A stretch of 64,000 nucleotides of DNA from a virus: positions 32,001-96,000 of the IMG/VR virus record IMGVR_UViG_3300014913_000007; one strand, written 5' to 3'. The notes beneath the pieces were generated by a model. The model was not told where the DNA came from. It saw nothing but the letters and a program-made list of their open reading frames with translations, and did no database searches. Positions 43,689 through 61,863 of the stretch are shown here, piece by piece. The position numbers and the translations under genes are program-made. Numbering within the stretch: the first letter of the stretch is position 1; every line of letters starts with the position of its first letter.

Positions 43689-43717
43689 TTGACTTTAATA
43701 TTTCAATGTACTATAGT
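43689..43717 (+). promoter_or_regulatory. promoter of tRNA array A
   Basis: TTGACT-N17-TATAGT. Confidence 0.75.
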
Positions 43718-43726
43718 AAATATGTT

Positions 43727-43773
43727 GCAGGTAATAAATATAGGGATACTCCTATAATTAGCCTGCTTTTTTT
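43727..43773 (+). terminator. promoter-proximal intrinsic terminator / attenuator hairpin
   Basis: GCAGGTAAT..TATAGG/CCTATA..ATTAGCCTGC followed by T7. Confidence 0.65.
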
Positions 43774-43783
43774 ATGAGTTAAT

Positions 43784-43903
43784 ATGATGGAAAAGAAACT
43801 TCAAATACATACAAATATCAATTCTAATATTATGGTGCCGTTCATGGTACCCATGTTTATTGCCCCTGCGGGGCAAGTACAACCAGTGCCATTTTGGTGC
43901 TAA
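43784..43903 (+). CDS. leader peptide A (MMEKKLQIHTNINSNIMVPFMVPMFIAPAGQVQPVPFWC)
   Basis: 39-codon ORF just upstream of array A; 30/39 residues match the array's tRNA specificities. Confidence 0.75.
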   Translation: MMEKKLQIHTNINSNIMVPFMVPMFIAPAGQVQPVPFWC

Positions 43904-45518: not shown

Positions 45519-45559
45519 TTTTCAATTGACTTACATTTATATGTAGGTTATACTTAACT

Positions 45560-45724: not shown

Positions 45725-45796
45725 TTTTCTTTCTTCAAGAAATCAAAAAGAAAAAAATAACAAAACAAAATTTAGGAATTATAATTTGATAGCTAT

Positions 45797-46348
45797 TTAG
45801 GTAAGAATACTTAAATCGTTGACGAAACACGACCAATTTTTGGCTTTTTGATGATACCCTAAAGGTAATTTAATGGGTAATTCATAGTAAAAATCATTGG
45901 TTACCTTATCTTGGTTTGGGAAGAAATCCATTCCTGTTTGATCTTTACCTATAAAATAACTTCTAGCTTCCTTTAAGGATATAGCTTTATCAAACAACAC
46001 CCAAACATGGTACCTATCTGGTGCTCCGCTTTTTTCTATAAGTATATTACTATGTATCTGTTTAGCCCAGAAAAATGCTTTAACTAAGTACTCCTCTCTT
46101 ATATCATCTACATCAAAACATAGGAACTTAACTGTCTGTGTTGAAAGTTCAGTTGGAAAGACACCCAAGGTTATCTTCCCTGCTAGATGTTTCTCGATTA
46201 ATTCTTTAGTAAGTGGAGCATATACTCTTTCATAGTAGTTCTCCCTTAATCTCCCAGAAGCATCCCTCTGCCAAGGATGCGGAGTCATTAAACAATAGGC
46301 ATCTTTTCTATGACAAAAAGTGTTATATAAGAAATCTACTTTACTCAT
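45797..46348 (-). CDS. stand-alone archaeo-eukaryotic primase domain (TOTE-associated type)
   Basis: HLAGKITLGVFP, FDVDD, EKSG..YHVW, FPNQD, IKLPLG. Confidence 0.75.
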   Translation of the reverse strand: MSKVDFLYNTFCHRKDAYCLMTPHPWQRDASGRLRENYYERVYAPLTKELIEKHLAGKITLGVFPTELSTQTVKFLCFDVDDIREEYLVKAFFWAKQIHSNILIEKSGAPDRYHVWVLFDKAISLKEARSYFIGKDQTGMDFFPNQDKVTNDFYYELPIKLPLGYHQKAKNWSCFVNDLSILT

Positions 46349-46658
46349 CTTCTATTTTATGTACACATCTAACACTATTCTCTGTATCTTCCTGTAAGGC
46401 AGTTCTATCCCCAATCATTAAGTCTCGATTTCCATTTATTACTCCTGTGGACAAAAGATATAGCCATTTATATCTTGTCAAATCTTCCACTTCTTTAGAG
46501 TATCTAACCACTGACTGCCAAGAAGTCCTAGGCCAGTCTGCTACCTTTGGAGCAAGTCCTAAAGTTTTTACTTGAACATTCACTACTTGTCCAACACTGT
46601 AGTCTTGAGTATCAGTAGTATAGTCTTCTGTTGCATATGTAACATAAATTGCTTTCAT
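46341..46658 (-). CDS. hypothetical protein
   Basis: ORF in a minus-strand run. Confidence 0.55.
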   Translation of the reverse strand: MKAIYVTYATEDYTTDTQDYSVGQVVNVQVKTLGLAPKVADWPRTSWQSVVRYSKEVEDLTRYKWLYLLSTGVINGNRDLMIGDRTALQEDTENSVRCVHKIEDE

Positions 46659-46659
46659 G

Positions 46660-47671
46660 TTATATTCTCCATTTTATTAAGAAATTAAGTGCATAATCCG
46701 ATTTATTAAAAATATTTATCTGTGTAGTACTAGGTGGATCTGAGGTCTCCGTAGGAAAAGCAATCATAGTATTAAAACCCTTTTCATCCCATTGCCATCC
46801 TGCCCCACCTCGATAGATATTAACTACCTGCCCCGGTACTTGTCCAGTAATGCCATTATGAACTAGAGTATCAGGAAAGGTATAATTATAATTAGTTATC
46901 CCGCGCCATACTGCCTGAGTAACATTACGAACATTAAACTCATCCGGTGGTTCATGGAATTCAAAAATGTCGTTAGTTTGATGTGTTGCAGTTCCTGATA
47001 CCATCGTTGTATTTGCTTGCTTACTGTTGATATATGAAGTAATATAGCTCCAGGTATCTCTTGTTATATTATGAACTACAGCTCCTACAGGCAACTTACC
47101 TTGTATCACCGACCTAGTTAGGATACTTGTAAGACCTGTATTACCGTGGCTTAAACCAGTACCAACAATAAGTCCTAACTGATACCACACCTTCCCCTCA
47201 ACAACCATCTGAGTAGTTGAAGTACCAGCGGAGAGTGTTAAATCTAACTCCCCTTCATCAGCAAAATTTCTTTGTTGTATAACTTGAAAATCGGCAGTAT
47301 AAGCCGGAATCGATAGGTTGACAGTTTCCCATCTCTTACCCTCTACCACAACTATTGCCATATTATTATAAAATTTATTGTCTTCTATGTCAGTCTCAAG
47401 CATAGAGCTTGTTGAGGCCACCAATTCGTCTACATACAGTTTTAGTTGTGGCATCATTCTGCCCACTTGGAGTGGGTAAATTAATCAAAGATTGATTATT
47501 AAAATCCACTGGACTTTGTGGTTTATATAGGTACCAATCCTCTGCAGCTCCTCCAGAGGGTACAACTATTTCTGAATCAGAATACCTTCCAGCTACAGCT
47601 ATCAAGTCCTTCCCTACCTTAATTATACTTGATTCAGGTGTTACTTGTGGATCTACTTTATAATTTGACAT
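46660..47671 (-). pseudogene. MSNYKVDPQV-module virion protein split by a +1 frameshift
   Basis: 47396-47671 and 46660-47466 join as DATTK|LYVDELVAS, matching EAATKLYVDQLIAS in the 56241 paralog; extra base in the T4 run at 47440-47443. Confidence 0.75.
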
Positions 47672-47930
47672 TTACCACTCTTCTATGCTAAATTTTTCTC
47701 TAGATATACTTATAATATAGTACACAAAGTTAACATTCAACTTTTTAGTTAAGTATCTACAATATTATACTTTGTCAACTATCTAAAACACACACGGACT
47801 TACAAGTCCTCTGTTTCTACTTTATAAAAAAGGACCCGTAAGTGACTAATTACAGGTCCAAAGCCGTCACGACTAACATGTACGCATTGTACTACTTGAT
47901 ATATAGTACTTTTAATAGTATACTACAAAT

Positions 47931-48452
47931 ATGTTTAATTTCATAGAGATATTATTTATAATGTTATCAACAACCTACCAGGTTCCTGAAATCTTTGATT
48001 GCCATATAAATAAATATCAGATATTAAAACTCAGTAACGAAGTCACCTTTGATGTAAGTAACTTCCTAAAGTATGATAGATATGTACTCAAATCGTCTCA
48101 AATTCACTCTATAGACCCCGATTTAATCAGATCAATCATCATAGTGGAATCTAAATATAATCCAGCTGTAGGCTCTCACAGAGGGGCTAGCGGGTTGATG
48201 CAGCTCATGCCACTTACTGCCAAGTATTTAAACGTAACAGACAGGAAAGATCCTGAGCAATCAATTGAAGGTGGTACTAAGTATTTGAGGGAACTATTCA
48301 CCAGATTTGGTAATCTAGACCTTACCCTAGCAGCGTACAACGCAGGTCCTACAATAGTAGGAAAGTACAATAAGATTCCTCCAATTAAAGAAACTGGCAT
48401 ATATGTTAGGAAAGTCAAGTACTTATATAAACAATTATCTAAAAACAACTAA
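47931..48452 (+). CDS. SLT-family lytic transglycosylase
   Basis: VES, GASGLMQLMP, AAYNAG. Confidence 0.9.
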   Translation: MFNFIEILFIMLSTTYQVPEIFDCHINKYQILKLSNEVTFDVSNFLKYDRYVLKSSQIHSIDPDLIRSIIIVESKYNPAVGSHRGASGLMQLMPLTAKYLNVTDRKDPEQSIEGGTKYLRELFTRFGNLDLTLAAYNAGPTIVGKYNKIPPIKETGIYVRKVKYLYKQLSKNN

Positions 48453-48527
48453 TAACAATCTCTGAAAATGTACTATCTTATAATGTAGTATACTTGTATA
48501 AAAATATTTTTAAAGAGGTAATATATA

Positions 48528-48800
48528 ATGGCATTATTATTTGATGGAGTAGCAACGGATTTCGCAGCTGATGAAGCTAGTTTCGTAGAGGTTGCACATA
48601 ATATTGGACAATGTCCTGATAGCATTCAATTTTTAGGAGTTGAAGGTGAGGTAGAAGGTTTTCCTACACTACTAGATGGTGAAGGTGATGAAATTCCTGG
48701 CCCATACCTAACACAAACAAGAGATCCTAATGTAGTTAGAGTTCACAAACCTAACGCTTATACGTTCGCAGGTAAGTTTATTGTTCGTATTTACGGATAA
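48528..48800 (+). CDS. small putative virion protein
   Basis: GAGG RBS; TGTACTAT motif upstream. Confidence 0.6.
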   Translation: MALLFDGVATDFAADEASFVEVAHNIGQCPDSIQFLGVEGEVEGFPTLLDGEGDEIPGPYLTQTRDPNVVRVHKPNAYTFAGKFIVRIYG

Positions 48801-48851
48801 TTTATAATCTCTATAGCCTGGTTAATTAACTTTAACTGGGCTATTTTTACG

Positions 48852-49214
48852 TCATAAATCTATAAGTCTCAGCTCTCTATTCCTATAATAGATTTTAGCA
48901 GTACCTTCAACGAAGTCTTTTAATGTTCTTGAAAAGATAGTACACCCATAACAGTCTGCCAACCTGTCTTCGTAATCCACTAGAGCTAAGAAATTGTTAA
49001 CTCCTCCTAAGCTTTCCTCTGAAAACCCAAACTTTATTAAGTCTTTTCTTTCTAAAGATCTTCTATCTATATGTGCTCCATTATAGAATTCAGTACGTAG
49101 TATAGCTTTATACTTAGCACCTTCCTTAGTTTCCTTTATCCAAAAAGAATTACCAAAGAGCAGAATCTCTATGAATTTATCTCTAGTTACTCTTCTTATC
49201 TTATATCTACTCAT
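48852..49214 (-). CDS. hypothetical protein
   Basis: ORF. Confidence 0.55.
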   Translation of the reverse strand: MSRYKIRRVTRDKFIEILLFGNSFWIKETKEGAKYKAILRTEFYNGAHIDRRSLERKDLIKFGFSEESLGGVNNFLALVDYEDRLADCYGCTIFSRTLKDFVEGTAKIYYRNRELRLIDL

Positions 49215-49770
49215 CTCTTAAAAGTTCCTGTCTGAAAAGTACCCAACGATGGTTAAGTTCTACTTTACCTCTATTAACCTCATCTAAATAGTCTATACAG
49301 TCAACTACATTGTCAAACATGAACTTAGGATCTATAATTCCAAATAACCAAGAGGATGCTTTTGTTTTACCCCCTTTCACGATAACTAGTACAGGCTTCT
49401 TCTGCTGATCTGCAAGTATTAGTTCATGGTACGTTCCACACATATGAATGCTAGTATCTACCATAACTATTAAGAAGTCAGAGATATCTACTTGTCTCAA
49501 ATCCGAGCGTACAATTTTTCTCATTAATCTTCTAAGTTTTGTCCAGCTTCTGTTCTTCTTTAATGTTCGAATAGCTTCCTGCTCCTCTCCTACGTCAGGT
49601 GTAAGAGCTTCTAACTTATGAGTTGGGTCTAGGAATTTGATACCTATACCTCGTTTCTTAGTTTCTTCTATAATTTCTTGTCTATAAGACACTCCATAAT
49701 CCTCAGACATATCAATAGGTCCCGCTAAATATGCCACAGATTTATCTAATATGTTGACCTTTTTACTCAT
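49207..49770 (-). CDS. nucleoside 2-deoxyribosyltransferase-like protein
   Basis: YLAGPID, DLRQVDISD, GTYHE. Confidence 0.75.
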   Translation of the reverse strand: MSKKVNILDKSVAYLAGPIDMSEDYGVSYRQEIIEETKKRGIGIKFLDPTHKLEALTPDVGEEQEAIRTLKKNRSWTKLRRLMRKIVRSDLRQVDISDFLIVMVDTSIHMCGTYHELILADQQKKPVLVIVKGGKTKASSWLFGIIDPKFMFDNVVDCIDYLDEVNRGKVELNHRWVLFRQELLRDE

Positions 49771-50741
49771 TAGTTTTCTCCATGTTTAGTATATAAATGT
49801 AAATATATTCTAGATATCTGATCTAGAAAAATTTCAAAGGTATGATCCTTTTTCATCATATTACAAGTTTTGCAAGCTGGTACACAGTTATCTAAGTAAT
49901 AACCCTTAGTATTGTCTAGTCTATCTATACTATTCCTAAATAGTCCTTTTCCTGACCTGAGCTTAGTTTGCGGAGAGTTTCCACAGTAATAACACTTTGA
50001 AGAGGCTATGGTTTTGAACTCCTCCAAAGTTAGATCAAAAGTAGTATTGTTAAAAAGCTTGTTACGTCTTCTATAGTTTGAAGCTATATACGCTCTAAAT
50101 TCTGACTCCCAAGCTTTAGCCTTAGTAGAAGGTCTCAAACTTTGTGAACACCTTGAACACTTTTTAATTAGTCCCTGCCTAAGATTGCAACCTATATATG
50201 CCTGCTCATTACCACATGTACACCTACACATCCACTTAAGTTCACGTTTTCCACTTTTAAATACATGATCCTCAACATTATACAAGACTACCAAATCTCC
50301 AAACACTTTTCCAGATAGATCAATAACAGATTTATACCTAATTACTTTAGAAAGGTTATCACAAGTCTCGCAGTAGGTACTACTACTTCTTCTAGAGGCT
50401 TTTCCATTGTAAGTCTTCAAAGTATCAATTGATATTTCCTTTTCTAGACCACAACTGCATTTACATAGATACCAAGATCGTCTTGTCTTTGTTGTCGAAC
50501 TTCTAGTTCTCTCTAAAACTGTCCAATTGTAGAAAGATTTCCCTATTAATTTTAACCTCTGTTCTTCGTGTTTACACTTTACACATTGTGTACTCATGCC
50601 TCTCGATAAAGCTGATCCTAGGACTGTGCTTTCTGTACCACAACTACATTTACATGTCCAATAAAGGTTTCCACTGGCGCTCTTATCCCTGGCTTTACTA
50701 ACTACCGTCCATTTACCTATTATTTGTCCAGTTTCAATCAT
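49770..50741 (-). CDS. HNH-type endonuclease with three CxCxCG repeats
   Basis: GKWTV..W.C.C.CG-like unit x3; CYYCG..IDRLDN..GY..NCVPACKTCN. Confidence 0.85.
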   Translation of the reverse strand: MIETGQIIGKWTVVSKARDKSASGNLYWTCKCSCGTESTVLGSALSRGMSTQCVKCKHEEQRLKLIGKSFYNWTVLERTRSSTTKTRRSWYLCKCSCGLEKEISIDTLKTYNGKASRRSSSTYCETCDNLSKVIRYKSVIDLSGKVFGDLVVLYNVEDHVFKSGKRELKWMCRCTCGNEQAYIGCNLRQGLIKKCSRCSQSLRPSTKAKAWESEFRAYIASNYRRRNKLFNNTTFDLTLEEFKTIASSKCYYCGNSPQTKLRSGKGLFRNSIDRLDNTKGYYLDNCVPACKTCNMMKKDHTFEIFLDQISRIYLHLYTKHGEN

Positions 50742-50835
50742 TTGTCTAAAATATTCGGATTCTTACTCATATTAAATCCTGTTATTAAGTAAAAATTCTA
50801 TACCTATTATAACATTATAAGTACAAAGCTGCAAC

Positions 50836-51216
50836 CTACTTACCATTAACATGTTTATATACCTTGTCATACAACTCTTTTACTAACTTACTAATAAATT
50901 CCGGATCATGAGTCTCTACTTTACTAATATGCTTACCACAATCCTTACAACGAACATAGAAGTGAATGCGGGGACCAATAAAGTCTCCTTGACAGGAATC
51001 ATAATCCTCTCTTTTGACGTGTTCGATATCTGGGTCATAATCTAGATTCTCATGCTTACAGGCTTCTATCTCACAGGCTCTTTCACATACTCCGGCCTCA
51101 TGCTCTTGTTTATAGGACTTACTACAAATATCACAGATATACTCGTAAACGTCATACTTCACCGTCCTTTCAATTGTCTTAACTAGTTTCTTCTTCATTG
51201 TTTTCCTTACATCCAC
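50836..51216 (-). CDS. Cys-rich zinc-binding protein (paralog 1)
   Basis: YxCxxC..CE..C..CxH..CxxC. Confidence 0.65.
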   Translation of the reverse strand: MDVRKTMKKKLVKTIERTVKYDVYEYICDICSKSYKQEHEAGVCERACEIEACKHENLDYDPDIEHVKREDYDSCQGDFIGPRIHFYVRCKDCGKHISKVETHDPEFISKLVKELYDKVYKHVNGK

Positions 51217-51547
51217 AAATTACAAAATCATCTGCTAACTCATATACTTCTCTAAAAAACTTACGAGAACAACATAAGTCCATCTTCTTATCTGATATTA
51301 CCTTATTACAGTTACTGCACTTCTCTAACAGGTACAGATATCCGGGTTCATGATCGTCTACATCATAAGAACGTCCTGGGAATTCCTCTATTACTACCTT
51401 TGTACAGTAATGTTTGCAATCTTTCTGCCTACATAATGACTCACACTCCTCTATATCTTTAGGACTTAAAGACTTCTTACCACAAAAGATACATTCATAC
51501 TCAATTACATATTCAGTTACTGGTACTTTTATTCTTTCTGTTTTCAT
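51179..51547 (-). CDS. Cys-rich zinc-binding protein (paralog 2)
   Basis: same Cys pattern. Confidence 0.65.
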   Translation of the reverse strand: MKTERIKVPVTEYVIEYECIFCGKKSLSPKDIEECESLCRQKDCKHYCTKVVIEEFPGRSYDVDDHEPGYLYLLEKCSNCNKVISDKKMDLCCSRKFFREVYELADDFVICGCKENNEEETS

Positions 51548-51927
51548 TCAAAGTCTTCCTCTTTTGTTTTATAGATTGAGAACTTCTTATACTGTTCTGC
51601 TATAGGTTGTATCTTCGCCAGGAATAGCTGTATATACTTCTTACCTTCTATCCTAACTTCACTAATGGCTGCTCCACATCGAGAACACTCTCCTTCAATT
51701 GATAGACTTGGGTGTTCAACTATGTCTAGATCTTCGTTAAAGGATCCGGAAAATCCATATAAACTATAATTAATTTCGTCATGTTCACAGTTAGTAAATC
51801 TACATAAGTCCGTACACTCTTTGGCCTCTTCTTCAGTGTCATATTCTCTTTTGCAGACTTCACATATATATCTATAGATGGTAACTTCCCTTAATTCTTT
51901 ACCTATAATCACTTTTTTCATTACCAA
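51544..51927 (-). CDS. Cys-rich zinc-binding protein (paralog 3)
   Basis: same Cys pattern. Confidence 0.65.
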   Translation of the reverse strand: MVMKKVIIGKELREVTIYRYICEVCKREYDTEEEAKECTDLCRFTNCEHDEINYSLYGFSGSFNEDLDIVEHPSLSIEGECSRCGAAISEVRIEGKKYIQLFLAKIQPIAEQYKKFSIYKTKEEDFE

Positions 51928-52847
51928 TCTGCCCCGAAAACTAACCCACCATAAATAGAAAACCTATCTTCTTGCTCTGAATACTGCCTAGTAGATCCTA
52001 TAACATTAAATTTAACTGAGTATCCTAAATATTCCAGTCCGACTCCAGTATGCAGACTACTTACAAAATGTTTAGTATCTACACTATGACTTTTTCTAAA
52101 CAAAGTTCCATCATAGAATATATTCCTACCTACTAAAGCTATGTTAGTTCCACCAAAAGCATATGCTGATACTCTCTCAGTGTGGCTTCCATCTAGTTGA
52201 GGTAAGTTTCTTCCTACTCTAAACAAATTTTTATAATTAAAATCAGTGTAAATATTACCTGACCTAAACCGTATTTCAGATACTCTATCTATAAATCTTC
52301 CATAAACAAACTTCTTACTTCTAAGATACTCTAAGTTTAGTACTAGCTCATGAGGTAGCTGATGATCCCAACCTTTAGGGTCTTTCCCCTTGCCTAGGTC
52401 ATTATGTACAAATTTCTGTGCATGTTCAGAAAAAGAATACTTACCCACCAATCCTATAGTTAAGGAGGTCTCTATTCTAAAGTCGGCATCAGCGTTTACT
52501 CTAGTTAACTGTGTAAACAATAATCCTGCATAGGGGTTATTGTTTTCTATTAGCTCCACTACCCCTATATCACTTGGGGTATGAATCTCTTGCCCAAACC
52601 TTGTTTTAATTCTGGTTAGTTTATCAGGGTCATTATCGTATATTCTAATAGCGGGTAAAAATCTCGCAGCTTGTCTCAGTTTCTTGGTGGCTTTAGCATA
52701 GCCTACTGAATTAGTTAAGATAGTTCCATGTGTGTAGTTTTTATCACTCCCCCCCACAATATCATTTTCTATAGTTATGCCAAAGTTATTGGAAACTGAA
52801 CAACTACACAAAAAAGTTAGTAGTATTATATATAAGTACTTAAACAT
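51921..52847 (-). CDS. lpxR: lipid A 3'-O-deacylase LpxR family outer-membrane protein
   Basis: END..D..YTHG, GQEIHTP, PYAG, QKFVH, GWDHQL; signal peptide; terminal aromatic W. Confidence 0.85.
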   Translation of the reverse strand: MFKYLYIILLTFLCSCSVSNNFGITIENDIVGGSDKNYTHGTILTNSVGYAKATKKLRQAARFLPAIRIYDNDPDKLTRIKTRFGQEIHTPSDIGVVELIENNNPYAGLLFTQLTRVNADADFRIETSLTIGLVGKYSFSEHAQKFVHNDLGKGKDPKGWDHQLPHELVLNLEYLRSKKFVYGRFIDRVSEIRFRSGNIYTDFNYKNLFRVGRNLPQLDGSHTERVSAYAFGGTNIALVGRNIFYDGTLFRKSHSVDTKHFVSSLHTGVGLEYLGYSVKFNVIGSTRQYSEQEDRFSIYGGLVFGADW

Positions 52848-52852
52848 GAAAC

Positions 52853-53233
52853 TTAAACCTCAATTATAAAATTATCTTCTTCCTCTGACTTAGTAACCTT
52901 ATTTACTCTTTTAGTACATAATGCAATACTAGTTTTATTAGGTCTTCCCTTCCTTCTAGCCTGAATGCCAGTACTCCCAAAGATAGTCCTTAAAGCTTTA
53001 GTATCTATTCTATACCTTACTGCTATCTCTTTCTGAGTCTTGCCTTCTATTATGTACAATTTAAACAACTTGTCTCTGGTTAACAATCTCCTAGCTCTTG
53101 CTATTTTTGTTTCTTTTCTCTTCACACAATGCTTTGATTTGAATTTCAACATTGTCCGGGTAGAGGCAGTTTCCACTTTGACTTCTCCTTTAGTTCCAAA
53201 TAAGACTTTTCTTATTCTTTTAATAAACAACAT
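52853..53233 (-). CDS. HTH-containing protein
   Basis: LYIIEGKTQKEIA. Confidence 0.55.
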   Translation of the reverse strand: MLFIKRIRKVLFGTKGEVKVETASTRTMLKFKSKHCVKRKETKIARARRLLTRDKLFKLYIIEGKTQKEIAVRYRIDTKALRTIFGSTGIQARRKGRPNKTSIALCTKRVNKVTKSEEEDNFIIEV

Positions 53234-53353
53234 ACTGCTCCTACTTCTCCTTCTTATTAAATATTCCTATAGAAAACAGTATACCCATCCTTTGATTGTA
53301 TGTCAAACTATTAATATAATCAATGCTAATAAAATTAATTAATTAATTAATTC

Positions 53354-53382
53354 TTGACTTTTATCATTACCTGTACTATAGT
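53354..53382 (+). promoter_or_regulatory. promoter of tRNA array B
   Basis: TTGACT-N17-TATAGT. Confidence 0.75.
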
Positions 53383-53388
53383 GAGTAT

Positions 53389-53469
53389 ATGATTACAAGA
53401 ATGATTTCTTTATACACTTCTTTATGTACCTCTTATCTAGAGGAACTCGAATATCTATATCTAAAATAA
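53389..53469 (+). CDS. leader peptide B (MITRMISLYTSLCTSYLEELEYLYLK)
   Basis: ATG at the expected +1; L/Y/E/C-rich, matching array B. Confidence 0.75.
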   Translation: MITRMISLYTSLCTSYLEELEYLYLK

Positions 53470-53484
53470 GGTAAACTTCACATA

Positions 53485-53549
53485 AAACTAAACGCACTTC
53501 TGGCCCAGTTTTATGGGAAGGAGATAAGTGTATTTAGTTTTTGTTTTTT
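53485..53549 (+). terminator. terminator-like hairpin between leader B and the first tRNA
   Basis: AAAACTAAACGCACTT/AAGTGTATTTAGTTTT followed by TGTTTTTT. Confidence 0.55.
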
Positions 53550-53553
53550 ATTA

Positions 53554-53640
53554 GCCCAGGTGGTGGAATTGGTAGACACGCTGAGTTTAAGCCTCAGTGT
53601 CAGCAATGACGTACAGGTTCGAGTCCTGCTCTGGGCACCA
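53554..53640 (+). tRNA. tRNA-Leu(TAA)
   Basis: long variable arm, loop TTTAAGC, CCA. Confidence 0.9.
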
Positions 53641-53641
53641 T

Positions 53642-53725
53642 ACTAGATTGGTGGAATTGGTAGACACATTAGGCTCAAACCCTGAGGCCAGAAATGGTGT
53701 ATAGGTTCGACTCCTATATCTAGTA
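53642..53725 (+). tRNA. tRNA-Leu(CAA)
   Basis: loop CTCAAAC; no CCA. Confidence 0.9.
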
Positions 53726-53730
53726 CTTAT

Positions 53731-53814
53731 GCCGAGGTGGTGGAATTGGTAGACACGCTAGTCTTAGAAGCTAGTGCCCGAAAGGGCGTGAGGGTTCGAC
53801 CCCCTCCTTCGGCA
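53731..53814 (+). tRNA. tRNA-Leu(TAG)
   Basis: loop CTTAGAA; no CCA. Confidence 0.9.
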
Positions 53815-53823
53815 CTTTTATAT

Positions 53824-53897
53824 GACTCCTTGGTCAAGTGGTAAGACGAGAGATTGCAAACCTCTAGTCCTGGGTTCAATCCCCAGAGGAGTTTCCA
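53824..53897 (+). tRNA. tRNA-Cys(GCA)
   Basis: loop TTGCAAA, U73, CCA. Confidence 0.9.
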
Positions 53898-53898
53898 C

Positions 53899-53986
53899 GG
53901 GAGAACGGTCACGATGGTGGAGTGGCACTGGTCTGTAAAACCAGCACAAAGAAACACAGGGGGTTCGAATCCCTCTTCTCCCACCA
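53899..53986 (+). tRNA. tRNA-Tyr(GTA)
   Basis: loop CTGTAAA, long variable region, CCA. Confidence 0.9.
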
Positions 53987-53989
53987 CAT

Positions 53990-54060
53990 GTCTCCATCGT
54001 CTAACGGTAGGACATCTGACTTTCTATCAGATAATGTCGGTTCGATTCCGGCTGGAGATA
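53990..54060 (+). tRNA. tRNA-Glu(TTC)
   Basis: TCTGA-CTTTCTA-TCAGA anticodon arm; no CCA. Confidence 0.85.
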
Positions 54061-54066
54061 CTTTTT

Positions 54067-55110
54067 TTAATCCTCTACTAGTACCTTAGATTGTATATAC
54101 TCTTTAACATACTTAAAAGGAATATCTAAGTCTTCGCTTATCTCCTCATAAGAAAGTCCTTCATCTATAAGCATAGTAGAAACTTCTGTTCCGTGTGCCT
54201 CCACTAAAGGTCTGAAGACTTGTTTAGCTTTTATTAACTCTTTCTTTGAGTTCCAATATCTAACAGACTTAAATAATTTCTTAGCTTTAGTATCTTCTGG
54301 AAAAATAGATGATTCAAGATCTACTTCTGGATATAGAATTTCTGCAAACTTAATCATGTCTACTGTCATAACTCTTACCCTACATACAGTAGATTGCTTC
54401 GTACTAGTATTTTCTAGGATGGTATTATATATTCCTAAATCCTTTAGTACTTCTGAAAACTGAGTGACAAATTTAATAGTAGGTCCACTCATGGATAGAA
54501 ATCCAGGTTCAGGTTCTGTTAAATTCTTACAGAAACCTCCATGTCTTTCAAAATACCCTCTCAAGTAATGTGGTAGTAGTTTCTTTGGCATTAAAGGTGG
54601 GAAGTCTAACATGTTTACATTTCTACTACCATAGTGCCACTTATTAAGTGCTTCTCTTATTCCTTGTTGGCTTATAGTAAGAAAAAATTTACCATATTCA
54701 CGTCCATTTACTGTTTGAGTACGGTAACTAAATTTATTATCTATCTTTAAACATTTTTTTAACTTTACTAAGTACTCTTTATCTTTTATAGAAGAAGTTA
54801 TTATCATACTTTCTGAAGTACTAGTCTTAAGGATCGATCCTGCCCAAGCTAGGTAACCTAATACGTAAGCTAAGTCCTTATTATCAATTTTCTTAAACTT
54901 ATCTAAGTCTATTTTCTTATACTTTCTTGTATTAATCATTCCAAGATCATAGCATTCCTTAAAGGATCTAAACTTCATATTATATTTTTCAAATAGCTTT
55001 TCTACTCTGTAAGTTGTAATAGAATATTTTTTTGCTATAGCTTTTTTACTTTTAAGCTCAATTAAGTAACTGGTCTCTAGTTGTTTTTTAGTTGGTAATT
55101 TAGTAAGCAT
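54067..55110 (-). CDS. degenerate LAGLIDADG protein with terminal HTH-like segments
   Basis: YVLGYLAWAGS and YLRGYFERHGG lack the catalytic D-G. Confidence 0.7.
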   Translation of the reverse strand: MLTKLPTKKQLETSYLIELKSKKAIAKKYSITTYRVEKLFEKYNMKFRSFKECYDLGMINTRKYKKIDLDKFKKIDNKDLAYVLGYLAWAGSILKTSTSESMIITSSIKDKEYLVKLKKCLKIDNKFSYRTQTVNGREYGKFFLTISQQGIREALNKWHYGSRNVNMLDFPPLMPKKLLPHYLRGYFERHGGFCKNLTEPEPGFLSMSGPTIKFVTQFSEVLKDLGIYNTILENTSTKQSTVCRVRVMTVDMIKFAEILYPEVDLESSIFPEDTKAKKLFKSVRYWNSKKELIKAKQVFRPLVEAHGTEVSTMLIDEGLSYEEISEDLDIPFKYVKEYIQSKVLVED

Positions 55111-55215
55111 CTATCAGTCTCCTTAAAAAATTCACTATAAGTAGCAGCTTACCAATATACAATAGTTTTGTCAATAGTACTTGCTATCTAAATAAAAATC
55201 CTATATAATATGCCT

Positions 55216-55381
55216 AGGGAGTGCCGACTCACAGTAGAGGAAACACTCGTAACGACAAAAAAATAAAGATGCTACTGTCTCTTAACTACTGGGTTTAATG
55301 GTTCGTTTATGTGCTCTGTACGTAACATCACCACCGATGGCTGTAGGTGTAAGCTCAACCTAGGAACGGGCCAGCTTTTTT
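55216..55381 (+). ncRNA. candidate structured RNA / 5' leader
   Basis: TTGCTA-N17-TATAAT at 55181-55209; multi-stem fold; U-tract. Confidence 0.4.
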
Positions 55382-55399
55382 ATTATACAAGTAACTAAA

Positions 55400-55738
55400 A
55401 TGAAGAAAATAAAACCTAAAGACTATTCAAAGTTAAAGCCTGGTAAAACATACCTATTTGCAAGTATACACTTCAAAGAAAAAGAAGTAAGTCTGCAAGG
55501 GAAAAAAGTTAAAACCTGGGAAATAGTAGAAGTAACTCCCAGAGAAGGTAAATTACTATCAATAACCACTAAAAGAATAGAGATACTAAAGAAAGGCAAA
55601 CCTACAGGAAAGTTCGCTCTGGTTGGGGATGTATTAATCTTTGAACCAAGAAATAACTGCATAGTATTAATGGGAAGTAAAGTAAAAGTCTTCAAAACAG
55701 TAATAGGCTGTAATAATTTTAAAATATATAAGAAGTAA
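55400..55738 (+). CDS. basic hypothetical protein
   Basis: ORF. Confidence 0.55.
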   Translation: MKKIKPKDYSKLKPGKTYLFASIHFKEKEVSLQGKKVKTWEIVEVTPREGKLLSITTKRIEILKKGKPTGKFALVGDVLIFEPRNNCIVLMGSKVKVFKTVIGCNNFKIYKK

Positions 55739-56240
55739 TTAAATATGGATCCAGTAATACTAATATTAATACTTATCTTATTTACGTCTGTGACTATAAA
55801 TTTGGTGCTTACATGTAGGTTATTAAGGTCTGAACTAACTTTAAGAAGAAAATCTAAAAGATTAGAAGCAGTTATGAAAGAAAATGAACGCTACTTCTAC
55901 GAACAGTTCGATAAATATGTTGATAACAAGTCAAATGAGGATTTTCATTAATCTGCTGGCCTATCTACTAAAATCCAGACACATCTACTGAATATATTTA
56001 AAGTAACTTCATCCTTCAATTCATGATCGTCTGGTGAGATGGTCTTATCATACCCTAAACATTTGAGATATTTATTCTCTACCCTGGCTAATTGTCTTAA
56101 CTTTTCAAAAGAGAGTTTCATTTCGTCTCTGTCCTTTTCCAGCATTGTATGTCCTTATGTATTTATAAGTTATTATTAATATTAGTTTAACATATATTTA
56201 ATACTAAGTCAAATACGTATTTTATGCTATTTCTTGACTT

Positions 56241-57794
56241 TTAAGCAATTATTCCTGAGGCTGTTACCCAATTACTACCACTATACCAAATTGGTAATCC
56301 TAAAGTAGTATCAAAGTAGAGTTCTCCTAATAGAGGTAATCCAGGTCTTTCCCCTGTGATACCTGCACTAGGTGTAACTAGAACGTCTAAGGCATCTTTT
56401 ACTGTAGATCCTGATACTGTAGAATCATTAATAGTAATAGAAGCAAAACTCTCTATAAAAGTATCATTTAAAGAAGTGGTATTACTATCATCTAAAGTAT
56501 ACCCATTCTCAATTAAGTAATCTACGGTATTATTATAACAAACATTTTTCTTTAAGTTACATACAGAACCATTCTCAAGTCTTATACCTCTATTACAGTT
56601 ATAACAAGTATTACCGATTATCGCTGCCATTCCATTAGCACTGCCACCGTCTAAAGATATACCCTCACCCGAACACTCAGAAACTAGGTTATCTTGGAGA
56701 ATACTAACACTAGTGACATCATCTATATCTATACCTTCAATGCAGCGTTTGACCCTATTTCTTCTAATTATTGCTGAGTTTCTGTAGCCAGAAATAGTTC
56801 CTAACTGATCTAACTTTATCCCTTCGCCTCCATTACCATCATCACAATTATTAATGTAACAATCTTCTACTAGCATGTTAATTGAATTCTGTAAATGAAG
56901 ACCTCTGCCCAGACTTGCAGAATCAATAAAACAATTCTTTATAAACGCAGAGTTAGAACCTCTTAAACAGATAGCTGCTCCTTCTATCTTATCTGTAGTG
57001 GCCTTATGTAAGTGACAGTCAATAATGGAGATATTACTACTCATTTCAGATATAGAAGGTGCAGTTGCATAATCTGATCCATTATAGTAGGCTAATAGTA
57101 TTGCACTGCCCTGGGCATTTCTTATAGTAATATTGTGAAATATTAAATCATTAGCTTTAGAATGATTGTCTTTAAATGTTATTGCGGAGCCTTTACCATT
57201 CTGGTAGGAGGTAGTGCAATCTTCTAGTATTAAGCTACTCAGTAAGATATCAGCTGCCCCATCTTCTACTTGAATACATTGCTGACCTGTAATAACTGGA
57301 AAATATCCATCTGTTACCTTTACTTTAAATTCTACTCCTGAGGGTATAGTAATTGGACTATAAGTAGCACTTGTCCTAACTTCAAGTACTTGGTCATCAG
57401 TAAGCGAGTTAATTGCCAAATTTAAATCATTTGATCCAGTAGTGGTTAAGATAACGTCTGGTATCTCAAATCTTAGTTCCTCAATGTCTTGTAAAATACT
57501 TGAGTATTCTCCAGCCTCTACTGAAGCTATTAACTGATCTACATATAACTTAGTTGCAGCTTCAGAGTCTGTGGTGGGGTTTGGTAATTGACTAAGTATT
57601 TGATTATTAAAGTCTACAGCATCCTGAGGAGGATATTTGTACCACTCATCTGCTGCAGCTCCAGAACTTGTAGCTCCAGAACTTGTAACTGCCTCTGAAT
57701 CTCGGTATCTACCTCCAACAGCTAATAGTTCCTCTCCTCGCTGAATTACTCTAGATTCAGGTGTTACTTGTGGATCTACTTTATAATTTGACAT
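56241..57794 (-). CDS. MSNYKVDPQV-module protein with right-handed beta-helix (tailspike/depolymerase-like)
   Basis: I.N/GI repeats typical of parallel beta-helix; C-terminal RP..P..GELYFDTTL..W module. Confidence 0.75.
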   Translation of the reverse strand: MSNYKVDPQVTPESRVIQRGEELLAVGGRYRDSEAVTSSGATSSGAAADEWYKYPPQDAVDFNNQILSQLPNPTTDSEAATKLYVDQLIASVEAGEYSSILQDIEELRFEIPDVILTTTGSNDLNLAINSLTDDQVLEVRTSATYSPITIPSGVEFKVKVTDGYFPVITGQQCIQVEDGAADILLSSLILEDCTTSYQNGKGSAITFKDNHSKANDLIFHNITIRNAQGSAILLAYYNGSDYATAPSISEMSSNISIIDCHLHKATTDKIEGAAICLRGSNSAFIKNCFIDSASLGRGLHLQNSINMLVEDCYINNCDDGNGGEGIKLDQLGTISGYRNSAIIRRNRVKRCIEGIDIDDVTSVSILQDNLVSECSGEGISLDGGSANGMAAIIGNTCYNCNRGIRLENGSVCNLKKNVCYNNTVDYLIENGYTLDDSNTTSLNDTFIESFASITINDSTVSGSTVKDALDVLVTPSAGITGERPGLPLLGELYFDTTLGLPIWYSGSNWVTASGIIA

Positions 57795-57864
57795 AATTAT
57801 TATTATTCCCTCATATTAAAATTTCTTTTAATATTCTATAGTACATTACCAAGTTAAATATTTC

Positions 57865-57893
57865 TTGACATACGTTAATATCTGTACTATAGT
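57865..57893 (+). promoter_or_regulatory. promoter of tRNA array C
   Basis: TTGACA-N17-TATAGT. Confidence 0.75.
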
Positions 57894-57899
57894 ACATTT

Positions 57900-57983
57900 A
57901 TGATGTTATCTATTTGTAACATATCTTTTGACTTTGCCGTATTCAACGGTACAGGAATCACCTCGGGAACTGGCACACATTAA
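57900..57983 (+). CDS. leader peptide C (MMLSICNISFDFAVFNGTGITSGTGTH)
   Basis: ATG at the expected +1; G/T-rich C-terminus matching tRNA-Gly and tRNA-Thr. Confidence 0.7.
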   Translation: MMLSICNISFDFAVFNGTGITSGTGTH

Positions 57984-58074
57984 GTGTAAACTGTCAGGAT
58001 CCATCTAACAAATAAGTTTAAAATTTAATCTGGATACTGGCGGTACTAATATGATCGTATTTGGAGTTTGTTAC

Positions 58075-58410
58075 ATGAGTAGATCACGTAGAAAAAAACC
58101 TATCATCAGACACGGTGGTAGTGATAAGTGGTGGAGAAGGAACTACAATCGTAAACTAAGAAGAGCTAATAAGGTACTCTTACAGAAACAGAAGGAAGAT
58201 TTCCTACCTAAATTAGTTAGAGAAGTTAGTAATGTTTGGGATAGTAGTAGAGATTGTACTTTTAGATTTACTTATCTAAAGGATGGTAACTTATGTCATC
58301 TAAGTAACGTTGGATTCTGGGCTGATTTTTATGGAGTATCTATAGAAGAGTATATAGAGAAAGAAAAGAAAGAAGCTAAGGAGGAATACAACAAATGGAT
58401 GAGGAAGTAG
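58075..58410 (+). CDS. basic phage protein (MSRS.R..P type)
   Basis: GGAG RBS before ATG 58075. Confidence 0.6.
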   Translation: MSRSRRKKPIIRHGGSDKWWRRNYNRKLRRANKVLLQKQKEDFLPKLVREVSNVWDSSRDCTFRFTYLKDGNLCHLSNVGFWADFYGVSIEEYIEKEKKEAKEEYNKWMRK

Positions 58411-58556
58411 AGTACAAGAAAACTAACAGGGAGAAGGTACAGACTCCTAAGTTAGGTATATTCTATTGCACATGTGATAGAGCTTTAGTAGGAAAGGGGA
58501 GGAAGTGTAAGTTTTGCGGGACTAGAGATCCTGGTAAAACATTTAAAAAATAATAT

Positions 58557-58629
58557 CCTGGAATGAGGTTAATGGTTAGCCTGTCTGACTTCCAATCAGA
58601 ATGCGTCAGTTCGAATCTGGCTTCCAGGA
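58557..58629 (+). tRNA. tRNA-Gly(TCC)
   Basis: loop CTTCCAA, TTCGAAT; atypical acceptor stem; no CCA. Confidence 0.8.
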
Positions 58630-58634
58630 CTCCT

Positions 58635-58707
58635 GCTCGAATAGTATAAGTGGGCAATACACTGGTTTTGTAATCCAGAATTTTCGGATCGTGGCCGAAT
58701 TCGAGCT
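58635..58707 (+). tRNA. tRNA-Thr(TGT)
   Basis: loop TTTGTAA; atypical T-loop; no CCA. Confidence 0.75.
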
Positions 58708-58748
58708 AATTATTTGACATTACTTAGTATTTATAATATAATAGTTAA

Positions 58749-59117
58749 ATGTCCAAACTTAAAGTCTGTAAACAATGTGGAAAAACTTTCCCCAAATCAG
58801 GTATGTACTTAGGTAAGTGAAGGAACTTCTGTAATAGGAGTTACTTTCTTTTATGCTCCTCAACTAGGTTGGCCAGACAGTATTTACTGGAGAAACATGG
58901 AAACAAGTGTTTTCAATGTGAAGTAACCGGATGGAATGGACGGCCAGGACCTGTAGTTTTAGATCATATAAATGGAAACCCTTATGATCATAGTTTAGAA
59001 AATATTAGATTGCTCTGTTGTAATTGTGATGCACAAACTAATACATATAAAAACAAAAATAAAGGTAAAGGCAGGCACACTAGGAGATTACGATACAAAC
59101 AAGGTAAAAGCTACTAA
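58749..59117 (+). pseudogene. HNH endonuclease with in-frame TGA
   Basis: ATG 58749 is in frame with the HNH part (LDHING..LCCNC); TGA at 58818-58820. Confidence 0.65.
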
Positions 59118-59148
59118 TAGCTAACTCAACTCTCAGCTTCAGCTCCAT

Positions 59149-59454
59149 TTATTTTGGTAATAAAGTCTCAACGAGTACATGATAATCTCCGAATATAATA
59201 CATGTACCATAGTCATTAATAGAAAACTGACCAAAATTAGGTGATATACCTTCCACACTCTCCTTAAAATAACTAAAGGGTACTTCAAGCAAGGAACTAT
59301 TTCCCATACATAATACAACCTCTTCAGTGTTTACATCTATAAACCCACTTATTACATGCTTCTCTGGGTTATCTTTCTTTAATACTTTAGTTATATTATT
59401 AGGATCTAATTTTGCTCTTCTACTAATCATATGTTCCTCACTCAATGTATTCAT
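59149..59454 (-). CDS. DUF2442-like hypothetical protein
   Basis: VPFSYF..I.DYG..I.FG pattern. Confidence 0.45.
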   Translation of the reverse strand: MNTLSEEHMISRRAKLDPNNITKVLKKDNPEKHVISGFIDVNTEEVVLCMGNSSLLEVPFSYFKESVEGISPNFGQFSINDYGTCIIFGDYHVLVETLLPK

Positions 59455-59555
59455 TAGTTATTACAAAATAAGCTAGTAATATATTAATACATAATTTAAA
59501 GATAAATGTCAAGTTACCATGTATTATATGTACCATAGTGTACTATAATATAAGT

Positions 59556-59918
59556 ATGGATATATTCCAATTAATCAAACAATGCTTAGAAACAGCTGAG
59601 GATACACCACATTTAAGCGTACTGGACGATTACATGCTATCTTATACCCTGGACCCAGATGATGAAGATCTAGCCACAGCGAGAGAATATGACCTTGATC
59701 GAGTAACTTATAAAGGATTAATAGAAGGTGAACAAATATTTATAGGACCAGATAGACAACCTATAGCACTTAAAGAGTCTGAATATAAAAAGAAATGGGT
59801 GATGATTTCAACTACTAAATTAAAAGGACAAATATTACTTGCTGAATATGAAAAGCTAATCCAGCAAGTTTATAATCAGTTACCTGAAGCTTTGAAAGAT
59901 AAAGTCTTTATTAAATAA
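59556..59918 (+). CDS. hypothetical protein
   Basis: ORF; start taken at ATG 59556. Confidence 0.55.
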   Translation: MDIFQLIKQCLETAEDTPHLSVLDDYMLSYTLDPDDEDLATAREYDLDRVTYKGLIEGEQIFIGPDRQPIALKESEYKKKWVMISTTKLKGQILLAEYEKLIQQVYNQLPEALKDKVFIK

Positions 59919-59920
59919 TA

Positions 59921-60250
59921 CTAAAAAGCAAAGCATTCAAAATAAAATGCTGAATCAGATGGGGAGGAACTTATTCTTCTAGTACCTACTCTAATAGTAT
60001 TAATATCTGAACTATTAGTTAATTCTCTCCAACCAGTTACAGAACCATTGGAACTTTGCTGCTGATCTTCAAAAGATCTAAACTGTGTTTCAGGATCATT
60101 TCCTACATTACCCGTGAACATTCTTATAAGTTGCACTCTTTTACCAAAATTATGATTAAAATAATATTGAATTTCCGAAGTAGAGGTACTCCTGGTTAAT
60201 ACCTCAGATTGATAATGTAAAACATTACTTTCATTTGTTAATCTAATCAT
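59921..60250 (-). CDS. hypothetical (possibly virion) protein
   Basis: GAGG RBS. Confidence 0.55.
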   Translation of the reverse strand: MIRLTNESNVLHYQSEVLTRSTSTSEIQYYFNHNFGKRVQLIRMFTGNVGNDPETQFRSFEDQQQSSNGSVTGWRELTNSSDINTIRVGTRRISSSPSDSAFYFECFAF

Positions 60251-60321
60251 AATATAATTCCTCGTATTTATTATCTATTCTTTATATATATAGTATAGAA
60301 GTAATATTTTTAATATAATAT

Positions 60322-60350
60322 TTGACATTAATTTTTATTTGTACTATGAT
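60322..60350 (+). promoter_or_regulatory. promoter of tRNA array D
   Basis: TTGACA-N17-TATGAT. Confidence 0.75.
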
Positions 60351-60359
60351 CTATTTGTT

Positions 60360-60446
60360 ATGTTAATATCAACTCTAAAACATATACTATTCGATATAAA
60401 GCGGTTCCATAACCGCCATAAAAGACGCTTTGCGTCTACAATATAA
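60360..60446 (+). CDS. leader peptide D (MLISTLKHILFDIKRFHNRHKRRFASTI)
   Basis: K/H/R/D-rich, matching array D. Confidence 0.75.
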   Translation: MLISTLKHILFDIKRFHNRHKRRFASTI

Positions 60447-60494
60447 TCAAACAAACAATTCAATTAGGGTAGAAGTAATTAAGTAAATAAATTT

Positions 60495-60563
60495 GGCTGT
60501 ATAGGTTAATGGTAGACTAGGAGACTGTCGATCTCTTTGCCGGGTTCGATTCCCGTACAGCCG
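60495..60563 (+). tRNA. tRNA-Asp(GTC)
   Basis: loop CTGTCGA, G73; short T stem. Confidence 0.8.
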
Positions 60564-60570
60564 TTCTTTT

Positions 60571-60642
60571 AGGGAGATAGCTCAATGGTTGGAGCACTCG
60601 GCTCGTATCCGAATGGTTACGGGTTCAAGTCCGGCCTCCCTA
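60571..60642 (+). tRNA. degenerate tRNA, anticodon CGT (Thr) on an Ile/Met-like body
   Basis: loop CTCGTAT; mismatches in acceptor, anticodon and T stems. Confidence 0.5.
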
Positions 60643-60743
60643 CTTTTTAAAGTAAACTATTCTTTACATTATACCAACTTAATGTATAGAATACTAGACA
60701 TTATCTGCTATACTGTCTAAGATTCTATACATTATAGCATTTT

Positions 60744-60817
60744 GCTGCAGTAGTCTAACTGGATAGGCATCTCGCTTCTAACGAGACAATATGAAGGTTC
60801 GAGTCCTTCCTGCAGTG
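60744..60817 (+). tRNA. tRNA-Arg(TCT)
   Basis: loop CTTCTAA; no CCA. Confidence 0.9.
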
Positions 60818-60825
60818 CTTTATAT

Positions 60826-60899
60826 GGTGACCATAACTTAACTGGTTAAAGTGCCTGACTGTGAATCAGGTGATTCGGGTTCAAATCCCGATGGTCACA
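60826..60899 (+). tRNA. tRNA-His(GTG)
   Basis: loop CTGTGAA, encoded G-1; no CCA. Confidence 0.9.
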
Positions 60900-60905
60900 C
60901 CCTTT

Positions 60906-60981
60906 GCCCTGGTAGTATAATCAGATAAAACACTCAGCTACGAACTGAGAGATGAAGGTGCAAGTCCTTCCTAGGGTGCCA
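60906..60981 (+). tRNA. tRNA-Arg(ACG)
   Basis: loop CTACGAA, CCA. Confidence 0.85.
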
Positions 60982-60986
60982 ATTAT

Positions 60987-61057
60987 TCCCTCTTAATGTA
61001 ACGGTAGCATACCTGGCTTTTAACCAGTTTGTGGGAGTTCAAATCTCTCAGGGGGAA
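60987..61057 (+). tRNA. tRNA-Lys(TTT)
   Basis: loop CTTTTAA; no CCA. Confidence 0.85.
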
Positions 61058-61095
61058 CTTTTTCAATTTCTAAGTATTAACTAAGTGCTATACAC

Positions 61096-61308
61096 TTACT
61101 GACTTCCCCACTGTGCAAAACCTGTGGGAGAGTTATAAATTGTAGGTTCTTTGGTAATATCTTCGGATACACTAAAACTATCAGGATATCTTCTCAACAA
61201 AATTTCTCTCGCCTGTTCAACGCTCTCTGCCAAAGCGAACATTATTCCTGCTTTCCAGTCCCAGAGAACATCTTCCCATACGTATAGTTTTAGGTTTTTA
61301 TTCTTCAT
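61096..61308 (-). CDS. hypothetical phage protein
   Basis: LKLYVW..FALAESVEQAR. Confidence 0.6.
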   Translation of the reverse strand: MKNKNLKLYVWEDVLWDWKAGIMFALAESVEQAREILLRRYPDSFSVSEDITKEPTIYNSPTGFAQWGSQ

Positions 61309-61729
61309 CTGACCATTTACCAGTTAGTTTAAAGTGCATTAGTTCACCAGTAAGCTCACTGCTACCACATAGAACTGGTACTCCAAGTTCTACACAGAGT
61401 TCTACTTCTTCACGCATACCTCCAGATACCTTATCACCGTAAAGCCAAAGCTCGTCAAAGCCTCCTCGTCTAAACATTGCCTTGTTTGCTTCTATTCCCA
61501 ATCTTCTCTCTTCTGGAATGTTATCATCTAAATAAAGAAGTGGGACTATGTAGGGAGCTAATGGGATAATATTTGGAGAATTTTTATGTATTTCCTCACA
61601 TATATCTTTTACACGATCAATATTACCAGAAATATCTCCAGACACCGGATGAGCTATATAAACCATTAGTTTCTCTTTTTTTGTCTCTTTAACTTCTGTT
61701 TTACCAAACATTTTAGGCTCCCATAGCAT
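61298..61729 (-). CDS. DUF4406-like / nucleoside-transferase-fold protein
   Basis: VYIAHP, DELWLYG..SGGMREE. Confidence 0.65.
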   Translation of the reverse strand: MLWEPKMFGKTEVKETKKEKLMVYIAHPVSGDISGNIDRVKDICEEIHKNSPNIIPLAPYIVPLLYLDDNIPEERRLGIEANKAMFRRGGFDELWLYGDKVSGGMREEVELCVELGVPVLCGSSELTGELMHFKLTGKWSDEE

Positions 61730-61863
61730 GTAAAAAGTAAGTTACACAAAAGATTATAACAGCAATATCAAGTACTATCATTGCAAAATTATGTAAAAAT
61801 TTTCTCCAAAATCCTGCTAAATCTATAACAAAGCTAGCAGATATTTTTAATAGTAATCCTAAT

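Follow-up and report, generated by a model that had tools for sequence, protein, structure and literature searches.

Why phages carry tRNA genes, and how those genes are controlled, has been debated for decades. The locus described here poses the matter in a compact form: why should a very short ORF (leader B), whose residues mirror the amino acids of the tRNA genes behind it, stand between a promoter (53354-53382) and the first gene of a six-gene tRNA array (tRNA-Leu, 53554)? The main ideas put forward for phage tRNAs are codon compensation and the replacement of those tRNAs that host defences cut (PMC10264068, PMC11464382). The reading favoured here is that leader B is a leaderless leader-peptide transcription attenuator that places tRNA supply under negative feedback; it is assigned a probability of roughly 0.6, and it rests on calculations in silico, without RNA or ribosome data.

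The window, that is, the whole 64,000-nt stretch that was analysed, corresponds to positions 32001-96000 of an IMG/VR virus record that is 153 kb long and has an estimated completeness of 78%. The phage DNA has a GC content of about 34%, and among its genes are those for an LpxR-like outer-membrane protein and a ribonucleotide reductase of class II; no close kin were found in the phage collection by megablast and blastn, and a comparison of the phage S2 protein with genome contigs was uninformative about the host. With default settings, ARAGORN identifies 23 tRNA genes, which share the plus strand and form four main blocks; together with two further genes found under relaxed settings, the total is 25 tRNAs covering 19 amino acids, with Ser alone absent. 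One of the two added tRNAs, the CAU tRNA at 43951-44025, could be of the Ile2 type, because ATA makes up 56% of phage Ile codons. Met and Trp, the assigned identities of the two, also occur as residues in leader A. The anatomy of unit B, observed in silico, is collected in Table 1 with its sister units and other phage genes.

Table 1. Features of unit B, of the sister units A, C and D, and of other phage genes; all coordinates are window positions.
Feature	Position	Strand	Description
Promoter P_B	53354..53382	+	-35 TTGACT (53354-53359), 17-nt spacer, -10 TATAGT (53377-53382); 10/12 match
Leader ORF B	53389..53469	+	26 codons plus TAA (53467-53469); ATG at predicted +1
Small hairpin within leader B	53429..53443	+	CCUCU-loop-AGAGG; seen in computed folds
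Sensor run, codons 16-25	53434..53463	+	YLEELEYLYL; each codon cognate to downstream tRNAs
Predicted antiterminator AT	53476..53520	+	CUUC-A-CAUAAAACU paired with AGUUUUAUG-G-GAAG
Predicted terminator T	53484..53549	+	Interrupted stem of ~29 bp, 58 nt (53484-53541), plus U-tract UGUUUUUU (53542-53549)
Regulated array B	53554..54061	+	tRNA-Leu(UAA), Leu(CAA), Leu(UAG), Cys(GCA), Tyr(GUA), Glu(UUC); 1-8 nt apart
T-run CTTTTTTTA	54062..54070	+	Directly after tRNA-Glu
LAGLIDADG-type homing endonuclease gene	54067-55110	-	Abuts tRNA-Glu (6 nt away)
Sister unit A	43689..43903	+	Shared promoter; 11-codon ORF in hairpin plus U7 (43722-43773); 39-codon ORF (43784-43903)
Array A			Met, Phe, Trp, Val, Asn x2, Pro x2, then Ala, Gln, Ile
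tRNA-Met(CAU)	43951-44025		Missed at default, found with relaxed ARAGORN settings
tRNA-Trp(CCA)	44187-44258		Missed at default, found with relaxed ARAGORN settings
Leaderless Cys-rich 149-aa ORF	44725-45174	+	Inside array A
Sister unit C	57865..57983	+	Shared promoter; leaderless 27-codon ORF with Gly/Thr-rich run at its end
Array C			Gly, Thr; two ORFs between leader C and array
Sister unit D	60322..60446	+	Same promoter type; 28-codon ORF rich in K, H, R, D, T
Array D			Asp, Thr, Arg, His, Arg, Lys
RtcB-type ligase	3946-5133		PHROG match
CCA-adding tRNA nucleotidyltransferase	6437-7771		PHROG match
Kinase-like protein	11864-13450		PHROG match
RNA ligase	13502-14650		PHROG match

The promoter of unit B sits inside a common motif, TTCTTGAC-N13-TGTACTATAGT, and its canonical +1, counted 7 nt past the -10, is position 53389, the A of the leader B ATG. 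This start is predicted and the transcription start remains unmapped; translation of the ORF is likewise inferred. Because the ATG is the predicted RNA start, leader B has no Shine-Dalgarno sequence. An ATG placed 6-7 nt after a -10 also heads phage ORFs of 517, 344, 173 and 149 aa, among others, and since long ORFs in the same phage share this -10-to-ATG layout, leaderless initiation of leader B is plausible.

The codons of leader B agree closely with the tRNAs encoded downstream. In particular, 14 of the 25 post-initiator residues are cognate to the array, with Leu encoded by TTA (twice), CTA (three times) and CTC (once), Tyr by TAC or TAT, Glu by GAA or GAG, and the single Cys, at residue 13, by TGT; the encoded anticodons UAA, UAG, GUA, UUC and GCA can read all of them. 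TTA and CTA are also the main Leu codons of the phage as a whole (43% and 23% of its Leu codons). The initial annotation had placed the ATG at the predicted +1 of the promoter, counted residues 16-25 as ten out of ten Y, L or E, paired the sole Cys with the tRNA-Cys of the array, described the Leu codons as mainly TTA and CTA, which the encoded tRNAs with anticodons UAA and UAG read, and named the array as Leu/Leu/Leu/Cys/Tyr/Glu; all of these readings are borne out. Its further suggestion, that three Ser codons might be the trace of a lost tRNA-Ser, finds no support: relaxing the ARAGORN thresholds brought up no tRNA-Ser anywhere in the genome and no degenerate tRNA in 53470-53553, and the Ser codons in question, which belong to the 11 of 25 that are non-cognate, fall outside the sensor run.

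How surprising is this agreement? When random peptides are drawn from the genome's all-frame codon frequencies, 14 cognate residues out of 25 have a P of 1e-3, and a ten-out-of-ten run has a P of 1.7e-5 for a random 25-mer. Moreover, across 154,763 stop-free 10-residue windows from six frames of the 153 kb, only one is made up entirely of L, C, Y and E; this window belongs to leader B and precedes the Leu/Cys/Tyr/Glu array by 120 nt on the same strand. Because TATCTA occurs three times within the sensor run, its codons depend partly on one another, and the nominal P is somewhat inflated.

Further, the match is not confined to unit B. The motif TTGAC-N13-TGTACTAT(A/G)(G/A)T has four copies in the 153 kb, one before each tRNA array and none elsewhere, and an ATG lies within 4-9 nt of every copy. 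The 39-codon ORF of unit A is rich in M, F, W, V, N, P, A, Q and I (29/38 cognate, P 1e-6); leader C holds the single window in the genome with at least eight of ten residues from {G,T}; and leader D has 13 cognate residues out of 27 (P 4e-3). When each leader is scored against each array, the -log10 P values are 5.8, 3.0, 2.7 and 2.4 on the diagonal and no more than 0.4 off it, so that all four leaders are enriched for the amino acids of their own array alone, with a Fisher combined P of 5e-11. Since the contents of the arrays differ, duplication is excluded as the source of the match, and selection must have produced it on four occasions. A functional link between the ORF and the particular tRNAs encoded behind it is held with high, though not complete, confidence.

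How might such an ORF act on the genes behind it? The hairpin that precedes the array has a predicted folding energy of -21.6 kcal/mol (z -5.2, equalled by none of 300 shuffles), and its U-tract ends 4 nt before the start of tRNA-Leu(UAA); that transcription terminates there is an inference. No other promoter fits between this hairpin with its U-tract and the array, and the six tRNA genes are only 1-8 nt apart; every array B transcript must therefore pass the hairpin. By inference, the T-run directly after tRNA-Glu is the likely end of the array transcript. The 5′ strand of a second hairpin, AT, begins 7 nt past the leader B stop codon, and this structure has 13 pairs with one mismatch and a folding energy of -11.9 kcal/mol (z -3.5, again with 0/300 shuffles matching). 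It is a register-shifted hairpin rather than a classical 2:3 pairing, and unit B has no 1:2 element. The two hairpins overlap at 53484-53489 and 53507-53520, and they are mutually exclusive because both use these nucleotides.

Folding calculations indicate that the choice between them depends on the position of the ribosome. When the nascent RNA extends to 53522, AT forms with a probability of about 1 if the 5′ boundary of the free RNA lies at or before 53476, which corresponds to no ribosome or to a stall at codon 25 or earlier. In contrast, a ribosome on the stop codon, which masks the RNA up to 53479-53483, abolishes AT in silico; what nucleates in its place is the terminator's apical hairpin. 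The initial annotation had pointed to a long hairpin with a U-tract between the stop codon and the first tRNA, had proposed folding alternative structures of the leader region, and had read the whole as an attenuator. The hairpin is present as described, an exclusive alternative fold that depends on ribosome position was found, and the attenuator reading gains support in silico from the codon match at four arrays, the private promoter and this ribosome-dependent alternative hairpin.

A thermodynamic switch was rejected: in equilibrium folding with ribosome masks, the terminator is dominant in every state. The switch must therefore be a kinetic one. The direct-path barrier from AT to the terminator is about 14 kcal/mol for leader B versus 5.8 kcal/mol for trpL, where such barriers are heuristic upper bounds; on this modelled barrier, AT once formed should outlast the passage of the polymerase. 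The E. coli trpL leader (sequence from NC_000913.3), run through identical scripts as a control, forms its 2:3 antiterminator only in the stalled state, leaves its terminator unopposed when the ribosome is on the stop codon, and has the terminator winning at equilibrium. Overall, trpL, a proven attenuator, shows a pattern like that of leader B in this analysis. For leader B, the default in the absence of ribosomes would be read-through, and termination would need the leader to be translated to its end in time. The small hairpin within leader B is a possible RNA polymerase pause element, which is inferred only.

The attenuator reading can be set out as a sequence of proposed steps. Transcription would begin at 53389, the first letter of the ATG, and a 70S ribosome would load on the leaderless 5′ AUG. 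It would then decode 26 codons; the ten that precede the Lys codon and the stop call for precisely those Leu, Tyr and Glu tRNAs whose genes lie downstream. With rapid decoding, the ribosome would reach the UAA (53467) while the polymerase is still synthesizing 53480-53520, and its footprint on the stop codon would mask the first 4-7 nt of the AT 5′ strand; with AT masked, the apical hairpin of the terminator would nucleate, the full hairpin and U-tract would follow, and transcription would stop 4-9 nt before tRNA-Leu. If charged cognate tRNAs are scarce, decoding would be slow and the ribosome would stall at or before codon 24, allowing AT to fold first and become kinetically trapped, and the polymerase would enter the six tRNA genes. 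The new tRNAs would make decoding faster and shut the gate, which would amount to negative feedback on the supply of charged cognate tRNAs. Both the direction of the response and its signal, including a response to tRNA supply, are inferred.

The sister units bear on how far this output step can be generalized. Directly past promoter A lies a GC-stemmed hairpin followed by U7, which encloses the 11-codon leaderless ORF; this is a second, different terminator-like gate, placed before the 39-codon matched leader A. Units C and D contain hairpins, and no clear U-tract terminator was found in either. Because units C and D have no clear terminator and unit A is laid out differently, the output step may differ among the arrays.

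These differences give weight to a rival account in which the codon-matched sensor is translated as proposed and its output is Rho access, processing by RNase E or RNase III, or precursor stability, rather than a terminator/antiterminator switch; in that case the B hairpin would act as a stem for processing, or as a terminator that leaks constitutively. Matched leaders without a hairpin plus U-tract in units C and D are what this account would expect, the dominance of the terminator at equilibrium in all ribosome states agrees with it, and the tRNA regions of T5 offer a parallel, in that stable RNAs and processing elements lie between their promoters and tRNAs. It is nonetheless considered unlikely, since unit B has a strong hairpin and U-tract directly before its first tRNA, and a non-random competing hairpin 7 nt past the stop codon goes unexplained if processing alone matters.

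Two other accounts do without the sensor altogether. The promoter could be of the ordinary tRNA kind and its 165-nt leader untranslated; the hairpin would then work in both directions as a terminator, or as an insulator against antisense transcription, and the amino-acid match would have arisen by chance. The flanks of the B hairpin are A-rich upstream and U-rich downstream, as in a terminator readable on both strands, the minus-strand endonuclease gene ends only 6 nt from tRNA-Glu, and the run includes the low-complexity TATCTA repeat; indeed, the hairpin could also stop antisense transcripts from this LAGLIDADG gene. This account is very improbable, because the match is the unique genome-wide maximum, stands at the correct array, and is repeated at three other arrays with their own amino-acid sets and the same private promoter, for a combined chance of about 1e-10. 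The other account takes the 26-residue peptide or the 160-nt RNA as the product itself, a small protein or dual-function sRNA, with the tRNAs expressed by incidental read-through. A promoter, a short ORF and a terminator do make up a complete small gene; yet nothing in this account gives a reason for four different peptides that each mirror their own tRNA set, no homologues or domains back a protein function, and no promoter dedicated to the tRNA genes would remain, which makes it scarcely credible.

If leader B is a leaderless attenuator, what might it be for? One possibility, advanced only tentatively and with less than even odds, is that the four leaders serve as an alarm for tRNA loss, array by array, and as a counter-defence against a host anticodon nuclease or infection-induced decay. 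The loss of given tRNAs would stall the matching leader, and that array alone would be switched on as a replacement; the leaders would act together with the phage RtcB, RNA ligase, kinase and CCA-adding enzyme and with a leaderless translation programme. These four genes form a tRNA repair kit that fits a tRNA conflict with the host, and the defence reading is attractive because the phage has them. It is untested, and as signals a mismatch with host codon usage or general tRNA decay are equally not told apart from it.

Comparison with known systems places leader B among the attenuators while setting it apart from each of them. Like trpL, leuL, pheL, hisL, thrL and ilvL, it is a short ORF with its regulatory codons near the 3′ end; its stop codon lies a few nucleotides before the antiterminator 5′ strand, and a predicted intrinsic terminator directly precedes the genes, as in the enterobacterial attenuators. 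Its proposed switch, like that of trpL, is kinetic. Unlike the enterobacterial attenuators, of which thrL and ilvL are multivalent, leader B would regulate tRNA genes rather than biosynthetic enzymes, so that the product acts back on the sensor; its multivalence covers three or four amino acids matched to one array; it is predicted to be leaderless, has no Shine-Dalgarno sequence and is phage-encoded, and its AT is register-shifted, with no 1:2 pairing.

For the idea that ribosome speed on enriched codons is the signal, a mycobacterial case is close. Barth et al., cited in PMC10264068, reportedly observed in 2021 that cleavage of tRNA-Cys by VapC4 stalls ribosomes on Cys-rich small ORFs; in that case tRNA loss can be the trigger, which resembles the idea proposed for leader B. 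Leaderless polycysteine short ORFs have been described as cysteine-responsive attenuators in mycobacteria (bioRxiv 10.1101/834739). Leader B resembles these ORFs and the VapC4 case in being a predicted leaderless first cistron whose enriched codons would make ribosome speed the signal, and differs in that the mycobacterial systems control cysteine or stress genes of a bacterium and respond to one amino acid each, whereas unit B precedes phage tRNAs and has a visible intrinsic terminator. T-boxes also use a 5′ leader that chooses between a terminator and an antiterminator according to tRNA status, but they bind uncharged tRNA directly, without translation, and stand upstream of amino-acid or synthetase genes. 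An Rfam scan of 43000-62000 with E up to 1 placed neither a T-box nor any other cis-regulatory family at 53383-53553; it returned only tRNA-type matches and two weak, sub-threshold Plastid-ycf2 matches on the minus strand of two tRNA genes.

Other phages were compared as well. T5 (NC_005859) resembles the present phage in having tRNA blocks behind phage promoters, with small ORFs and homing endonucleases interspersed; mobile endonucleases thus stand beside tRNA blocks there as well. No convincing codon-matched leader was found in T5, where several windows rank equally with the best candidate, T5.072. T5.072 (NC_005859 locus 10618-10893, minus strand) has WEGWEGEIEWLYFY upstream of a Tyr-Glu-Trp-Phe tRNA block; chance probably accounts for the match, since P14a, the annotated promoter, comes after it and several other windows in the region do at least as well. 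Ralstonia phage RsoM2USA likewise yielded no convincing codon-matched leader. With no convincing case in either T5 or RsoM2USA, the design is not universal.

An independent candidate for a codon-matched attenuator occurs in the uncultured megaphage LR756501.1 (735 kb). At locus L020, 3693-3835, a 22-codon ORF precedes five tRNA-Leu genes; seven of its 22 codons are Leu (P 3e-3), and all six Leu codons are used (P 0.016 given seven Leu). A strong terminator lies between the ORF and the tRNAs, and GAUUGGGU appears both in the last codons of the ORF and in the 3′ arm of the terminator, resulting in a textbook 1:2 / 2:3 / 3:4 switch. As in unit B, a short ORF rich in the amino acid of the array is followed by a terminator and then by the tRNAs; unlike leader B, it senses one amino acid through the classical layout, and the two have no sequence similarity.

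No relatives of the array or the leader were found in phage, viral-contig or metagenome collections, so there is no evidence from conservation or covariation. In particular, comparing the flanking proteins with viral contigs revealed no related array; the D-arm pattern of the triple tRNA-Leu genes led to no related array in viral contigs and to bacterial Gly/Leu loci only in metagenomes; and the private promoter motif had eight chance matches in viral contigs, all without tRNAs. In full-text literature searches, no report emerged in which a leader peptide governs tRNA genes. Attenuation itself is known; what the proposal adds is its application, in the form of leader peptides, to phage tRNA genes, in a multivalent and leaderless version. 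If the proposal is true, tRNA supply is self-regulating, array by array, and classical attenuation extends from amino-acid genes to the translation machinery itself. With a length of about 200 nt, including a promoter, 26 codons and two hairpins, the unit could also find use as a small biosensor that reports how available particular tRNAs are.

Several smaller observations concern the arrays and their promoters. The promoter motif common to the arrays falls within a palindrome, TGTACTATAGTACA, that overlaps the -10; the palindrome is perfect at promoter C (57883-57896) and partial at promoters B (53372-53385) and A (43707-43720), and it could be the operator for a dimeric regulator common to all tRNA arrays. 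In array D, a 100-nt gap (60644-60743) between tRNA-Thr(CGU) and tRNA-Arg(UCU) contains a promoter-like TTTACA, 18 nt and TAGAAT; because of this site, array D may be two transcription units. Between tRNA-Gln and tRNA-Ile, positions 45345-45442 of the window hold three direct repeats of TTTTGGCCGATC-like units.
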